Of a DNA stretch of 64,000 nt, positions 37,776 through 57,664 are shown piece by piece; position 1 is the first letter of the stretch; each line of letters opens with the position of its first letter. The translations under genes and the position numbers were made by a program. The stretch is from Escherichia phage p000y: the sequence record MK047718.1, one strand, 5' to 3'. The notes under the pieces were generated by a model that saw only the letters and a list, made by a program, of their open reading frames with translations, had not been told where the DNA came from and made no database searches.

Positions 37776-38327
37776 TTACTTAAAGATATTTATAATCGCT
37801 TTGATAATAGATTTGTTTTCAAGGTCAGGGAATTTAGGGAATTCGCCGCCAAGATGTTCATGTTTTTCTAAAAGGGCAAAGAATTTTTTGAGCTCTTTAA
37901 ATTTTCGTTTTTCTTCTCTATTAGCAACCTCTGCGTCAATAAGAGAACTTAAAACACTGAATAATTTATAGAGTTCATGAATTTTCTTATCACGTTGAAC
38001 TACGCGTTTATATGCTTCATCTTCCTTCCACCCGTCGTCGGTCCAAATGTCAAATTCACCAGGTTCTTCCGTAGTAACATTTTGAAGAGCACCCGGAGTG
38101 TCAATAACAATTTTTTGCTTATCATAAGTCCATACTGTTTTTCCACGATGGTCTTCAACATATACCCATTCTTGTTCGTGTTCATCAAATAAAACAGCAT
38201 AGCCTTCTTTAGGGTCTAAAGGTTTTTTTGGTGTTGAATGAGCCGGAAATCCTACACCTTTTAATGGTTTATAATTTTCTTCTTTGTAAAATTCTTTAGT
38301 GTCAAAATAATAATGATAGAGTTTCAT
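37776..38327 (-). CDS. 38: gp38 tail fibre assembly chaperone (T4 type)
   Basis: MKLYHYYFDTKEFYKEENYKPLKG...DIWTDDGWKEDE...FALLEKHEHLGGEFP matches T4 gp38 as recalled; 183 aa. Confidence 0.85.
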   Translation of the reverse strand: MKLYHYYFDTKEFYKEENYKPLKGVGFPAHSTPKKPLDPKEGYAVLFDEHEQEWVYVEDHRGKTVWTYDKQKIVIDTPGALQNVTTEEPGEFDIWTDDGWKEDEAYKRVVQRDKKIHELYKLFSVLSSLIDAEVANREEKRKFKELKKFFALLEKHEHLGGEFPKFPDLENKSIIKAIINIFK

Positions 38328-38357
38328 ATTATAAAAAGGGACCGAAGTCCCTTCTCC
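38328..38357 (-). promoter_or_regulatory. Hairpin between an SD and the gene 38 start codon (split ribosome-binding site, or 37/38 terminator)
   Basis: - strand reads UAA(37 stop)GGAGAA-GGGACUUCGGUCCC-UUUUUAUAAU-AUG(38). Confidence 0.5.
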
Positions 38358-41300
38358 TTATGCTAAACGAACGATATAGTTAAAAGCAACGTTTTTAACT
38401 GTGTTTTCTGTATTTCCTGTGGCATTTACAGTTATTGTATGTCCATGGGAACCAATCGCTACCGAATGAGAGTGGGCACCAATACCTACAGTATGTGTAT
38501 GGGCACCAATACCTACAGTATGCGCGTGGTTACCTGTGGTACTTGTGGTTCCTGACCAAGAGTGTGTATGGTTACCTTCTGAAGAAGTTTTGGCCATATT
38601 CGACGATGCGGTAGCACCACTCACGGTTGCAGTGAATTTAGCGTTACCGTTTGGACCCGCACTATTGTATCCATCATAGAATACGCTAGTGGGTATGCCG
38701 CCTTGTACCTGAGGACCTGAGCGCGCATGTTGGTGGTTACCTGCAGCACTTGTAGTTCCACTCACCGTATGGTTATGGTTACCTGTGGTATTACTGGTCT
38801 TAGTACCATAATCAAAGCTTGAAGTCGTTTTGCTACCGTAATCAAAACTAGAAGTGGTCTTAGTACCCAAATCTGTGCTTGATGCACTTGCACTATGGCT
38901 ATGTGACTTAACACCGTCTGCTTCTGTACTCAATACAGCACGCCCAGATGGTTTACCCTTGATAGTTTGACCACGCATATCAGGCAGAGTGCCGGAAGGA
39001 TACACCGCAGCTAACTTAGGATACAAGTCAGCATCAAATGTTTGACCTTCCATTATGGCATAACCTTCAGGAGGTGTATCAGTAGGCCAAGGAATCGGAG
39101 CACCGATTGGGTAACTCGAGACAATATCCGTCTTAAGGTTATTTATTGTTGTATTCAAGTTAGCAAAATTACCAGAACCACCAGTGATATTACCATCAGT
39201 ACCAATACGAACATTACCAGCGCCTAATTTACCAGGAGAATAAAAATCACCGTTTTTATTAAATTCCCATCCAAGATCCTTTATAACAGCACCAGTAGAA
39301 ACGCCGTCACCACCTTCGTGATAATGAACTCTAAAGTTACCACCATTAATTAAAGTACCAATAGAATAGCAACTATTATTTTGAACGTATCTTTGTTTCA
39401 CAATAGGAACATAAGTGCTTGTATCTGTTCTATCAATATTCATATAGAACGGAGCACGAACGTTTTCATTATTTTGTGAAGCAAAAGAACCGGCTCCAGC
39501 AGGTCGTGCAGTATCAGTACATTCAGCGTCGATATATGCCGATTGTCCTAATTGCATACGGTAATTAGGAGAAATACGACTATTACTAGTGATAACAACA
39601 AGTTTATTATCATTATCGACCGTTACCATATTACCGCCAGCACCATCATCGCCTAATGTAACGGAATGGCGCATTTGTACCATACCGTTGTTAAGAGAAA
39701 CACTCAATGGGCGAAGGTTAGAAATACCACCACTTTCACCTGCATCTTTAAGTGTAGGTATAATATGCAAAGACGCTTCAGAACGACGGAAAATAGCTCC
39801 ATATTCAGCATTGTAAATACGGAAAGCATCTGCGGTATTACCGATTTTAACTTGACCGGTAATAGAACCACCGCCGGATAAAACAAGCCCGTTATCCATA
39901 GTAACTTGTCCGGATAATGTACTTAATCCATTAACTCTAAGACTTCCATCGGTGATAATGCTCCCTCTTGCATTCAGTTGTCCATTAATTTGTGTTACAA
40001 CAGGTCCCACAGTTTCTGAACCGGTTGGAGCTACGCGCTGAGAATAAAAATAATATCCCTGCCCGTCAGCTACTTCAAAAACTGTTTCACGAGTACGATC
40101 GCCGGATGCGTTAAATGAATTACCCCATGCTTTAACAGTTACGTAGCTTTTATTCTGCCCAGCACGAGTACCACCTTCCCACAAAATTTGCTTAGTGCCA
40201 TCAACTGTAGTAGTTGGAGCGAATGTTAGCCCAGCAGTAGAATTATTAGCTGCTAAATATACACCATTATATATTGAAAGCTGCTTAGTGGATGTAATAC
40301 CGCCATCAGCATAAAACATCACATTATTTGCACCGGTTACCAATTTCAAAATACCCGGGTTAATTTCCATACCTTGTTGGGTATTGATATTCATCTGACC
40401 TGTACCACGGAAATAATGGGAAAATTTACCGCCAGAATTATATCCGATGTGGGTTTGACCATCACCTGCATTGTTTGTATCAGCCTGGGTTTGAACCGAT
40501 AAAAGCGCGGCGTTGGTTCCAGGCATTGTCCAGGTTCCGCCTTGGTCTTCTGAGCGTCCAAATAATGCTTTACGAGTACTACGGAAACTATCAGGAGTAA
40601 TAGAAGCAACAGAATTCCAATTACCTACTAAATCATAAACGCCTTGCTTAATATATTTTAAACCAGTTGCAGCATCGCCCAAAGCAATATATCTTTCTCC
40701 CATTGGAGTAGGAGAGCCGTAGTTGTTAGTATTTTCGTCAGCAGTAATTGTGCCAATAGCAAGTGAACGACGTAATACCATTGCTCCATCATTACGAAGA
40801 CCCATTAATTTAGTAGTAAGTGTATTTCCGGTCCACCAAGAAATTTCATCATTCTTACCAGTTTGAGCTGAAGCGATTTCATGGTAAATGGTTCCACCTG
40901 ATTTAGCTCGAACTTTACGAAGATAGTTTATACCATTTTCTTCACCTGTTCCAGGATAAACATATTGAACTAATGACTGCGAATCGTATTGTCCAAATGC
41001 TTTTGTGTCTAAAACAATGGTTTTCGTATTAACTTGTGGAGCAGAAACTATACCATTAGCGGAGTTAATATTGCCTGACGCAGAAATATTACCTTTGCTG
41101 ACAAATAAATCACCAGTGTCAACTTGGAAATTACCATTACGATTAAAAGTCCAATATTTCGAATCCCCAGTTTCATCAATATAATGGAACTTAAAACTGC
41201 CTTCAGCAACCAATGTACCCGCTGAAAACGTACCATCTTTATAACGTTGCTTAATGAGTGGATGATATTCTGAAATAGAAGTAGTTGAACTTAAATCTGT

Positions 41301-41633
41301 AAAGATAGGAGCTTTATTTAGGTGTTGATTTGCCCACGCGCCATTACCAGCTGTTTTAGGTAAAAATTCAATATATTTTCCTGCATAAACAAACTGATTT
41401 CCATTGAGATTATATGTGCCGTTTTGTAAATAATCACCATTTTGAGTTACATTACCGTTAATATCCCCGCCCTTAGCAAAACCTAGGCTAATAATATTAC
41501 CGAGGTCATCTTTAGTAAAAAGAGTTCGATCTTTTAAGTTTATCGCTAATTCGCCTTCGGCTAATTGTGCTGCAGTAGGATTAACTCCTGCCACTTTGCT
41601 TCTTTTAAATTGTATCTGTTTTAATGTAGCCAT
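38358..41633 (-). CDS. 37: gp37 long tail fibre distal subunit (receptor binding)
   Basis: 1091 aa; C-terminal His-box repeats ([41 protein letters not shown]) like the iron-binding needle of T4 gp37; synteny 34-35-36-37-38. Confidence 0.9.
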
Positions 41634-42328: not shown

Positions 42329-42336
42329 TATTTATA
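42329..42336 (-). promoter_or_regulatory. T4 late promoter (TATAAATA) for gene 36
   Basis: Exact TATAAATA on the - strand about 25 nt upstream of the gp36 start. Confidence 0.65.
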
Positions 42337-42337
42337 C

Positions 42338-42361
42338 AAAAATGGGAGACCGAAGTCTCCC
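42338..42361 (-). terminator. Hairpin terminator between 35 and 36 (- strand)
   Basis: On the - strand GGGAGAC-TTCG-GTCTCCC then AUUUUU, immediately upstream of the gene 36 late promoter. Confidence 0.55.
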
Positions 42362-56048: not shown

Positions 56049-57227
56049 ATGAGTACAGTTTTTAACACACAACAAGTCGATGTTTTGAATGAACCGATGT
56101 TCTTTGGTTCTGGTCTTGGCCTCGCACGGTATGATATTCAGCGTCATAAAGTTTTTGAAGAGCTTATCGAAAAGCAGCTCTCGTTCTTTTGGCGTCCCGA
56201 GGAAGTAAACTTGATGTTGGATTCGGCCCAGTTTAATAAGCTTCCACAGTTCCAACAGGACATCTTTACCAACAACCTTAAGTATCAATCATTATTAGAT
56301 TCTATCCAAGGTAGAGCACCATCTGCGGTACTTATGTCATTGCTTTCAGACCCTTCATTAGATACATGGGTTGCTACATGGACTTTCAGTGAAACTATTC
56401 ACTCTCGTTCATATACTCATATTATGCGAAATCTTTATACAGATCCATCGAAGGTGTTTGATGAGATTGTATTAGATGAAGCTATTATGAAGCGTGCCGA
56501 ATCTATCGGACGATATTATGATGATGTTCTGGTTAAAGCTCGTTATTGGGAAAACGCTAAAGCTGATATCGAATACCAAAAAGAAATTAATGCAGACGAA
56601 GACGTTATTGAAGATGCTATTGAGCATGAGACATATTGGAAGCGTGAGCTAATGAAATCTCTTTACCTCTGTTTGCACGTTATTAATGCCTTAGAAGCTA
56701 TTCGTTTTTATGTATCTTTCGCATGCACCTTTAACTTCCACAAGAATATGGAAATCATGGAAGGTAATGCCAAGATTATGAAGTTCATTGCTCGTGATGA
56801 ACAGCTCCACCTCAAGGGCACTCAATATATTATTCGCGCTTTACAAGATGGCGAAGACGGTGATGAATGGGTCAAAATTGCTCAAGAGTGTGAACAAGAA
56901 GCAGTTGATATTTTCATGGAAGTTAACGCTCAAGAAAAAGAATGGGCTGAACACTTGTTTAAAGATGGTGCTCTTCCAGGTCTAAATGTTAAAATCCTAA
57001 GTGAATTTGTGGATTATCTTACCGTGTCTCGTATGCGTAGTTGTGGTCTGCCATGTCCTCTTAAAGACGTATCAACTCGTCATCCTATTCCATGGATTCG
57101 TGAGTATTTGAACTCTGATTTGGTTCAAGCAGCCCCACAAGAAGTTGAAATCAGTTCTTATCTTGTCGCACAAATTGATAATGATGTAGACCAAAATGTA
57201 ATCAATTCATACAAAAAATATTTCTAA
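56049..57227 (+). CDS. nrdB: Ribonucleotide reductase beta subunit (uninterrupted, no intron)
   Basis: About 392 aa; di-iron ligand motifs (ETIHSRSYTHI, EGNAKIMKFIARDEQLHL); ATG 56049 (the track start 56037 is 4 codons upstream). Confidence 0.9.
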   Translation: MSTVFNTQQVDVLNEPMFFGSGLGLARYDIQRHKVFEELIEKQLSFFWRPEEVNLMLDSAQFNKLPQFQQDIFTNNLKYQSLLDSIQGRAPSAVLMSLLSDPSLDTWVATWTFSETIHSRSYTHIMRNLYTDPSKVFDEIVLDEAIMKRAESIGRYYDDVLVKARYWENAKADIEYQKEINADEDVIEDAIEHETYWKRELMKSLYLCLHVINALEAIRFYVSFACTFNFHKNMEIMEGNAKIMKFIARDEQLHLKGTQYIIRALQDGEDGDEWVKIAQECEQEAVDIFMEVNAQEKEWAEHLFKDGALPGLNVKILSEFVDYLTVSRMRSCGLPCPLKDVSTRHPIPWIREYLNSDLVQAAPQEVEISSYLVAQIDNDVDQNVINSYKKYF

Positions 57228-57253
57228 GGACGGGACTTCGGTCCCACTTTATT
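57225..57253 (+). promoter_or_regulatory. Hairpin between an SD and the denA start codon (split ribosome-binding site)
   Basis: UAAGGAC-GGGACUUCGGUCCC-ACUUUAUU-AUG; same architecture as at gene 38. Confidence 0.45.
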
Positions 57254-57664
57254 ATGAAAGATATCGCCGCCGAATATTCCTTTATTAAATATACAGAATT
57301 GGAGCTATTAGAAGATGCAACAATTAAAACAGTTGATGTCCCTAATAAGAAAAATGTCATATATGCTATTGCTATAGATGACGAACTTGTGTATATTGGT
57401 AAAACCAAGAATTTAAAGAAACGCATTAACTATTATCGAACAGCCATAAATCGAAAAGACCAGACTTCAGATTCAAGAAAATCACTTATGATTTTGGATG
57501 CCTTAATGCAAGGCAAAAAGGTTGAATTCTGGGCCCGCCAATGTTTTGACCTTTCAGTCACCAACGAACTTGGTTCAATGACCATCGCAACAATGGACCT
57601 TGAAGAACCACTTTTTATCAAAAAGTTCAACCCGCCTTGGAATATCCAACATAAGAAAAAGTAG
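57254..57664 (+). CDS. denA: Endonuclease II (DenA), GIY-YIG family
   Basis: 136 aa (T4 DenA is 136 aa); GIY-YIG-like VIYAIAIDDELVYIGKTKNLKKRINYY; position after nrdB. Confidence 0.8.
   Translation: MKDIAAEYSFIKYTELELLEDATIKTVDVPNKKNVIYAIAIDDELVYIGKTKNLKKRINYYRTAINRKDQTSDSRKSLMILDALMQGKKVEFWARQCFDLSVTNELGSMTIATMDLEEPLFIKKFNPPWNIQHKKK

Follow-up and report, generated by a model that had tools for sequence, protein, structure and literature searches.

The stretch of DNA analysed here, called the window below, comprises 64,000 nucleotides of Escherichia phage p000y (sequence record MK047718.1), and the site of interest is the junction between genes 37 and 38 on its minus strand. Read from the window, the minus strand from 38360 to 38325 is, as RNA, UAA-GGAG-AA-GGGAC(UUCG)GUCCC-UUUUUAUAAU-AUG, or in DNA letters TAA GGAG AA GGGAC TTCG GTCCC TTTTTATAAT ATG. 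The features of the junction are the following:

38358..41633, minus strand: gene 37-like open reading frame (ORF), long tail fibre distal subunit, 1091 aa, with its stop codon TAA at 38360-38358
38354..38360, minus strand: Shine-Dalgarno (SD) element UAAGGAG, 7 nt, which begins with the gene 37 stop codon (38358-38360)
38333..38356, minus strand: predicted extended stem, 10 bp, which adds A:U, A:U, G:U, A:U and G:U (GAGAA with UUUUU) to the core hairpin
38338..38351, minus strand: core hairpin GGGAC-UUCG-GUCCC, 5 bp with a C(UUCG)G tetraloop, pair probability about 1.00, with covariation
38351-38347, 38346-38343 and 38342-38338, minus strand: 5' arm, loop and 3' arm of the core hairpin
38328..38337, minus strand: spacer UUUUUAUAAU, A/U only, from the hairpin to the AUG, also the U-run of a putative terminator
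37776..38327, minus strand: gene 38, T4-type tail-fibre assembly chaperone, 183 aa, with its AUG at 38327-38325

The last 30 codons of the gene 37-like ORF are nearly identical to those of T4 gene 37, and across the junction the window is 85% identical in DNA to T4 and 100% identical to the Mosigvirus phage JK42. A first, sequence-only reading of this DNA had named the gene 38 ORF as the tail-fibre chaperone, and its Pfam match (Caudo_TAP) and 69% identity to T4 gp38, aligned from residue 1 (Met1), bear this out. The same reading placed the sole SD-like element about 26 nt from the AUG; the distance from GGAG (38357-38354) to the gene 38 AUG proved to be exactly 26 nt, and no SD core was found 3-12 nt upstream of that AUG. 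The UAAGGAG element offers seven contiguous complements to the 3' end of 16S rRNA. No further ATG, GTG or TTG lies in frame after the gene 37 stop and ahead of the gene 38 AUG, and an alternative gene 38 start was rejected on this ground together with the match of the N-terminus to T4 gp38 from its first residue. A gp37-gp38 read-through fusion, for which the two genes happen to be in frame here (33 nt), was also rejected, since the gap is 29-34 nt among relatives. The same lack of a conserved stop-AUG frame relation disfavours a T4 gene 60-type bypass, which was rejected because the last gene 37 sense codon is GCA and no GCN occurs within 50 nt after the stop. A RegB cleavage site was discarded as well: the bases following GGAG depart from the GGAGRAYARAA consensus, and resistance is reported for late mRNAs.

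The entire hairpin is flanked by the SD and the AUG. Its local fold is predicted at -14.3 kcal/mol (z = -2.4 versus shuffles), and with the core stem forming at a probability of about 1.00 the earlier description of a very stable tetraloop hairpin separating the two elements was accurate. Folding nevertheless corrects the simple picture in one respect: the stem extends to 10 bp through GAG-AA:UUUUU pairs, and the last three bases of the SD are therefore predicted to be paired in free RNA (p > 0.93). The predicted cost of opening the SD is about 4.3 kcal/mol, that of opening the SD together with the start region while the hairpin stays intact is 6.7 kcal/mol, and that of full melting is 17.6 kcal/mol. 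Measured around the folded hairpin, the SD-AUG distance is 7-8 nt with a stem of 7-8 bp, and 12 nt when only the five G/C-rich pairs are counted. An Rfam search (E <= 1) returned no match at the 37/38 site. It had further been suggested that RNA folding may gate the expression of gp38. This idea is weakly supported; no fold competing with the hairpin is predicted (hairpin p about 1.0), and the hairpin would be constitutive rather than a switch.

The site is orthologous to the region of T4 where translation of gene 38 starts, and we consider it probable that it works as a non-contiguous ('split') ribosome-binding site (RBS). Genes 36, 37 and 38 would be transcribed as one late mRNA, in which a strong SD, UAAGGAG, falls right at the gene 37 stop codon and is followed by the very stable C(UUCG)G hairpin (5-7 bp), an A/U spacer of 8-10 nt and the gene 38 AUG. 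A linear spacing of 26 nt exceeds the roughly 15 nt taken here as the upper limit and would be too far for initiation; with the hairpin folded and kept clear of the mRNA track, SD and AUG would come to within 7-8 nt (or 12) of each other, inside the working range, and to reach the SD the 30S would need to open no more than the three lowest pairs of the stem, which are weak (G:U/A:U). The hairpin probably has a second job, which may be protection of the 3' side of the gene 37 mRNA or a weak attenuation.

Published work on T4 provides the frame for this reading. Structure cuts a 22-nt spacing to 5 at T4 gene 38 and one of 27 nt to 11 at T4 gene 25, where destabilising mutations lower initiation (PMC3014915). 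The passage on 'noncontiguous or split' RBSs in PMC7297116 names Gold 1988 as the source for gene 38 and Nivinskas 1999 as that for gene 25, and the gene 38 mechanism is worded there as 'suggested'. Both reviews thus describe the T4 junction in this way, and the remark in the sequence-only reading that a split RBS is known for T4 gene 38 was correct. The T4 junction reads UAAGGAGAGGGGCUUCGGCCC(C)UUCUAAAUAUG, and p000y shares with it the junction and its flanking coding sequence, UAAGGAG over the gene 37 stop, the position of the C(UUCG)G hairpin and an A/U spacer ahead of the AUG. The two differ in several respects: a stem pair that is G:C in T4 is A:U in p000y, which is a compensatory change, an additional A stands between the SD and the stem in p000y, and the spacer is UUUUUAUAAU here versus UUCUAAAU in T4, the longer U-run here being more terminator-like. 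Along the linear sequence, SD and AUG are 26 nt apart in p000y, 22 nt in the T4 record AF158101.6 and 23 nt in the resequenced T4 record MT984581.

T4 gene 25, at the 26-25 junction, likewise has a hairpin between SD and AUG. Its split RBS goes back to Nivinskas et al. 1999 and Malys & Nivinskas 2009, as summarised in PMC3014915, according to which the arrangement is conserved in close T-even phages only and the RBS was, in the authors' word, 'accommodated' at the intercistronic junction. Gene 25 is, however, another gene with an unrelated sequence, and the mutational, reporter and DMS evidence belongs to it alone; that the hairpin enhances translation is something we infer for p000y from its proposal for T4 gene 38 and from the experimental test at the analogous gene 25. 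Hairpins of the C(UUCG)G type were found in the intercistronic regions of T4 mRNA in 1988 (PMC4371310), and the one described here has the same tetraloop, the same C:G closing pair and the same post-stop intercistronic location. As in the E. coli thrS and rpmE RBSs, a stable stem-loop appears to be tolerated in the ribosome-binding region and to arrange the mRNA elements (Sacerdot 1998; PMC7297116). The thrS stem-loop serves as an operator to which the gene product binds, and it parts an upstream single-stranded region from the SD, whereas here the stem parts the SD from the AUG and no regulator is implied. Because the hairpin-interrupted RBS is the same as that of T4 gene 38, in a close T4 relative belonging to Mosigvirus, the original observation stands and describes a known feature; the site is real and, judged from sequence, appears functional, and nothing in it is new in kind.

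Conservation was assessed over 14 junction variants drawn from five Tevenvirinae genera and from metagenomes. IMG/VR scans with gp38 and the conserved gene 37 end as queries gave just 2-3 relevant contigs, and one metagenome scan with the gp38 N-terminus as query gave 5 contigs and one new loop variant. Across the 14 variants 98.8% of stem cells are paired, and in slid registers the paired share falls to 74% or less. The pair adjoining the closing C:G is G:C in seven variants, A:U in six and C:G in one; the observed covariation score was reached by 1 of 500 shuffles, with covariation confined to one of the five core pairs and among related sequences, closely related because the tail-fibre cassette is exchanged between phages. 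The loop varies freely (UUCG, UUCU, UUAU, GUUA), and so does the length of the spacer between hairpin and AUG (7-11 nt among relatives). GGAG is invariant in 13 of the 14 variants and lies directly 5' of the stem in all 13 of T4 type. The folded SD-AUG distance holds at about 5-13 nt across the junction variants, and in the 13 split-type variants (all but Moon) 8-13 nt remain outside the core stem. The claim that a hairpin brings a distant SD to the AUG is supported by this stem covariation, by the orthology to the T4 37/38 junction and by the two reviews. Anatomy, orthology, conservation and covariation of the stem, folded spacing and energetics are all documented here for the site itself.

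In RB69 and the Citrobacter phage Moon the same hairpin follows gene 37, and the SD lies downstream of it at normal spacing. This order implies that the existence of the hairpin is independent of bridging SD and AUG; the hairpin is thus a positional element, and the split layout is best seen as an RBS fitted, or accommodated, around it. One rival explanation holds that the hairpin is chiefly a generic post-stop mRNA stabiliser or folding insulator. It would stop 3'->5' exonucleases once the A/U spacer has been cut, or shield the downstream RBS from gene 37 sequence, the bridging of SD and AUG being a secondary accommodation. The two phages just mentioned favour it, RB69 having an unrelated, adhesin-type gp38, as does the way in which the stem is held while the loop and the U-run drift. 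In the window as a whole, CTTCGG is commoner than expected by chance, with 29 occurrences against 15.2 +/- 3.8 in shuffles (0 of 100 shuffles reach 29), and 12 of the 29 form stems of at least 5 bp. Nine of these 12 follow a coding-strand stop codon by no more than 8 nt, all in sense orientation, which also favours the stabiliser. A stabiliser would nevertheless leave unexplained the invariant GGAG directly 5' of the stem in the 13 T4-type variants, the absence of an SD near the AUG and a folded spacing that stays at 8-13 nt despite indels. The two roles are compatible rather than exclusive, and we regard it as unlikely that stabilisation is the chief one.

The sequence-only reading had also proposed that the hairpin and the U-run could act as a terminator after gene 37. 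Taken as a full rival to the split RBS, this would make the site chiefly a leaky intrinsic terminator or attenuator, in which the hairpin and U5 set a low gp38:gp37 ratio and the position of the SD is incidental. Such a ratio would suit gp38, a non-structural chaperone of which less is needed than of gp37. Directly after the GC-rich stem comes UUUUUAUAAU (U5AUAAU), and the d'Aubenton-Carafa-type score, computed with an approximate form of the formula, is +10.5 for the 5-bp stem, within the range of the window's other post-stop hairpins. The score nevertheless depends on the stem end chosen and drops to -8 once the A:U pairs that use up the U-run are counted, and a terminator scan of the window did not call the site. 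The U-run is, moreover, lineage-specific. It is absent in T4, VR7, SP18, Moon and RB69; at the position of the tract T4 has UUCUAAAU, VR7 UUCUGAAU, Moon UCUGAGGA and RB69 UUGGAGGU, and terminator scores are negative for the T4, F2-type, VR7, SP18 and Moon variants. RB69 has GCCCCUUGGAGG, and TransTerm called no 37/38 terminator in that phage (PMC1524935 supplement 6). The GenBank record of NBG1 labels the identical sequence 'terminator', which is a computational call; in at least this one record the label probably overstates termination at the site.

Promoter context bears on the same question, and one further feature has to be added:

42329..42336, minus strand: nearest upstream exact late-promoter box, TATAAATA, ahead of gene 36

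This box is itself preceded by another CUUCGG hairpin (42361-42344). From 42329 to the gene 38 AUG no exact TATAAATA occurs, the nearest one-mismatch boxes lying >800 nt upstream, and a late promoter belonging to gene 38 itself was rejected for want of an exact box. Gene 38 must therefore be transcribed from 42329..42336 or from further upstream, via gene 37, and so depends on read-through from that gene; efficient termination would abolish an essential function. The terminator proposal is weakly supported, and we judge it very unlikely that termination is the main business of the site.

Alternatively, initiation might do without the distant SD and be driven by the A/U-rich spacer or by coupling to termination at gene 37. 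A ribosome ending at the gene 37 UAA would then be passed on to the AUG 33 nt downstream, or ribosomal protein S1 would bind the spacer, which is pure A/U. The overlap of the gene 37 stop codon with the SD is in keeping with coupling. In lambda, P2-like and Erwinia relatives of the stf/tfa cassette the two genes overlap as TAATG, and homology to lambda DNA stops exactly at the stop codon, so that coupling may be the ancestral state. Against this, GGAG stays invariant where the spacer and the loop vary, simple coupling would have a long way to span (29-34 nt, interrupted by a stable hairpin), and the reviews credit the SD plus structure (PMC3014915, PMC7297116). Reinitiation or S1 binding as the driver of gene 38 is in our view highly improbable, and the split RBS is the reading that we prefer.

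Most of the window's other CUUCGG hairpins are followed by a long gap and then a separate promoter or RBS, and among the 12 only those of gene 38 and denA sit between an SD and an AUG. The second site has the same architecture:

57225..57256: nrdB->denA junction, conserved in six genera

Across these six genera the denA stem shows covariation, and its 3' spacer is constant at 8-9 nt. MAFFT registered the six junctions poorly; the pair count was taken from 14-mers centred on the hairpin by hand, and for that reason it leans towards structure. A literature search for a denA split RBS returned nothing relevant. It is conceivable, if doubtful, that a stop/SD overlap, a tetraloop hairpin, an A/U spacer of 8-10 nt and an AUG form a reusable Tevenvirinae cassette (37->38, nrdB->denA) with a dual role. 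The hairpin would owe its conservation chiefly to a role where the upstream cistron ends, either protecting the mRNA 3' side or attenuating weakly, and it would refold behind the departing terminating ribosome and hand the 30S to the downstream AUG. Such a cassette, if real, would combine differential mRNA stability with termination-coupled initiation, and the T4-type layout, with the SD ahead of the hairpin, and that of RB69 and Moon, with the hairpin first, would be alternatives able to replace each other.

The value of the 37/38 site of p000y and its relatives is comparative. Natural variants make a ready mutational series for an element whose action at gene 38 is worded as 'suggested' in PMC7297116. 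Among them are exchanged stem pairs, four different loops, spacers of 7-11 nt and, in two phages, an SD on the far side of the hairpin. The variants also matter for annotation: in two RefSeq records an AUG that has arisen inside or beside the hairpin is annotated as the start.

The gene 37/38 junction, read on the - strand from 38360 to 38325, is TAA GGAG AA GGGAC TTCG GTCCC TTTTTATAAT ATG, and the sequence-only reading had both its layout and its position right. Two open reading frames meet there:

38358..41633, - strand, gp37-like ORF of 1091 aa, closed by the TAA of the junction
37776..38327, - strand, gp38 ORF of 183 aa, opened by the ATG of the junction

The 183-aa product aligns with T4 gp38 from residue 1 at 69% identity and matches the Pfam family Caudo_TAP. 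GGAG lies 26 nt from the AUG; no Shine-Dalgarno (SD) core was found 3-12 nt before this AUG, and no other in-frame start codon between it and the gene 37 stop. With that stop the GGAG makes up UAAGGAG, which is complementary over seven contiguous bases to the 16S rRNA 3' end. A gp37-gp38 read-through fusion was ruled out by the variable frame (gaps of 29-34 nt), as was a gene 60-like bypass, there being no landing codon that matches GCA. RegB cleavage is unlikely here: the 3' context is off consensus, and resistance has been reported for late mRNAs. Initiation of gene 38 could possibly be coupled to termination of gene 37, an arrangement compatible with a split ribosome binding site (RBS) in which the hairpin brings SD and AUG together.

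The junction is 100% identical to that of Shigella phage JK42 (Mosigvirus) and 85% identical to that of T4, which in AF158101.6 is UAAGGAGAGGGGCUUCGGCCCUUCUAAAUAUG. Genes 38 and 25 of T4 have been described as having 'noncontiguous or split' RBSs 'suggested' to act positively, the first credited to Gold 1988 and the second to Nivinskas 1999 (PMC7297116), and destabilising mutations lower initiation at a T4 split RBS (PMC3014915). Since two reviews describe the T4 site, the gene 38 element is already known, and by its sequence the site studied here appears to be the same split RBS in a close relative and not a new one. The main interpretation of the sequence-only reading, which itself pointed to T4 gene 38, is borne out. 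As a side observation, the 3' arm of the T4 hairpin is GCCC in AF158101.6 (locus L001, 530-545) and GCCCC in resequenced T4, MT984581.1 (locus L037, 189-203), and in all close relatives; with this extra C the classical '22 nt' T4 spacing becomes 23 nt in those records. The difference is due either to polymorphism or to an old error in sequencing.

In ViennaRNA the element folds at -14.3 kcal/mol (z = -2.4), with pair probabilities of about 1.00 for the five core pairs and two adjoining A:U pairs; three further weak pairs (G:U, A:U, G:U; p > 0.93) extend the stem over the last three SD bases. Freeing the SD would cost 4.3 kcal/mol, freeing SD and start region with the hairpin kept 6.7 kcal/mol, and melting the whole stretch from the SD to +15 17.6 kcal/mol. 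With the hairpin folded, SD and AUG are separated by 7-8 nt, or 12 nt if the G/C core alone is counted. No structure competing with the hairpin appears in the predicted fold, so the architecture is constant and not that of a switch; the proposal that folding gates gene 38 expression is not supported as a conserved function.

The same hairpin had also been proposed to terminate transcription after gene 37. Its U5 run makes the window's lineage more terminator-like than T4, the 5-bp stem scores +10.5 on a d'Aubenton-Carafa-type scale, and the GenBank record of NBG1 labels the junction hairpin as a terminator. Counting the A:U pairs that use up the U-run lowers that score to -8, and scores are negative for the T4, F2-type, VR7, SP18 and Moon variants. 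Our terminator scan of the window did not call the site, and TransTerm predicted no terminator between 37 and 38 in RB69 (PMC1524935 supplement 6). Exact late-promoter boxes on the - strand were found only before gene 34 (47409), gene 36 (42329) and t (37787); with none directly before it, gene 38 depends on read-through. At most, then, the hairpin is a leaky attenuator specific to the window's lineage, and termination is unsupported as a conserved function.

Junctions from Tequatro-, Mosig-, Gapriver-, Dhaka- and Moonvirus records and metagenome contigs gave 14 distinct variants. All 14 keep the stem (98.8% of cells paired), and pairing falls to 74% or less in slid registers. The pair beside the closing C:G is G:C in seven variants, A:U in six (window included) and C:G in one (ESCO47), a covariation score reached by only 1 of 500 shuffles; the remaining core pairs are invariant and hence uninformative either way. 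Loops are UUCG, UUCU, UUAU or GUUA, the 3' spacer is 7 to 11 nt long, GGAG is unchanged in 13 of the 14, and 8-13 nt lie outside the core stem in every variant except Moon.

Citrobacter phage Moon (locus L024, 360-403) reads UAAUAGAUU-GGGGCUUCGGCCCC-UCUGAGGAAACU-AUG and RB69 (locus L038, 6350-6392), whose gp38 is of an unrelated adhesin type, reads UAAUAAGA-GGGGCUUCGGCCCC-UU-GGAGGUG-UAU-AUG. In both, the hairpin GGGGCUUCGGCCCC directly follows the gene 37 stop and precedes a canonical SD, so the hairpin is a positional feature of the 37/38 boundary, independent of the split layout; its position is conserved whatever the RBS layout and gp38 type. Where lambda, P2-like and Erwinia phages carry relatives of this fibre/chaperone cassette (loci L021-L023), the two genes overlap as TAATG. 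The 3' end of gene 37 (38358-38480, - strand) shares 74-78% nucleotide identity with lambda stf and P2-like fibre genes, and this homology ends precisely with the stop codon. The T4-type junction thus has an insert of 26-31 nt, made up of SD, hairpin and spacer, that seems to be peculiar to T4-like phages.

Of the 98 ORFs in the window, only two, gene 38 and denA, have a stable hairpin between a distant SD and the start codon:

57225-57256, + strand, split-RBS-like site at the nrdB->denA junction (compared loci L034, L035, L036, L039, L040)

This site reads UAA-GGAC-GGGACUUCGGUCCC-ACUUUAUU-AUG, and its hairpin 14-mer is identical to that of gene 38. The order of elements, a stop that overlaps an SD-like AAGGA/GGAG, then a hairpin, 8-9 nt of spacer and AUG, recurs in RB59 (T4 species, GCAA loop), JS98, CF1, Klebsiella phage UTI-K4 and Erwinia phage Vettismorki, and three stem pairs covary. 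We found no description of a denA split RBS in the literature; only this site and the comparative junction series might repay further work. Loop or flank mutations have created an in-frame AUG inside or beside the hairpin in JS98 denA (locus L035, 146-176; GGAAUGGGG) and in E. coli O157 typing phage 6 (NC_041864; locus L019, 273-305), whose UUAU loop yields an AUG 9 nt after GGAG. RefSeq takes the upstream AUG as the start of O157 typing phage 6 gp38 and of JS98 denA, which lengthens the products by 6 and 8 residues; in both, the true start is more likely the conserved AUG.

CTTCGG occurs 29 times in the window against 15.2 +/- 3.8 expected, about twofold. In twelve copies the stem reaches 5 bp or more, always in sense orientation, and nine of these twelve hairpins begin no more than 8 nt past a stop codon:

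6749, 8504, 14466, 23877, 25758, 30363, 32697, 34227, 38333, 42344, 50677 and 57232, the twelve CTTCGG hairpins

The 37/38 hairpin, present without the split layout in Moon and RB69, fits this post-stop pattern, and we infer that it serves the end of the preceding cistron, either by protecting the mRNA on its 3' side or by attenuating weakly. The RBS of T4-type phages would then have been fitted around it, the idea that Malys & Nivinskas put forward for gene 25 (PMC3014915). The hairpins at 42344 and 50677 share the identical 18-mer GGGAGACUUCGGUCUCCC, the former at the 35/36 boundary:

42344-42361, - strand, CUUCGG hairpin GGGAGACUUCGGUCUCCC followed by AUUUUUGU, 3' of gene 35
42329-42336, - strand, late-promoter box TATAAATA, with a canonical gene 36 RBS, directly after the gene 35 hairpin

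This boundary (42329-42361) is a terminator-then-promoter junction; a predicted 35/36 terminator is reported for each of six T4-like genomes in a published comparison (PMC1524935).
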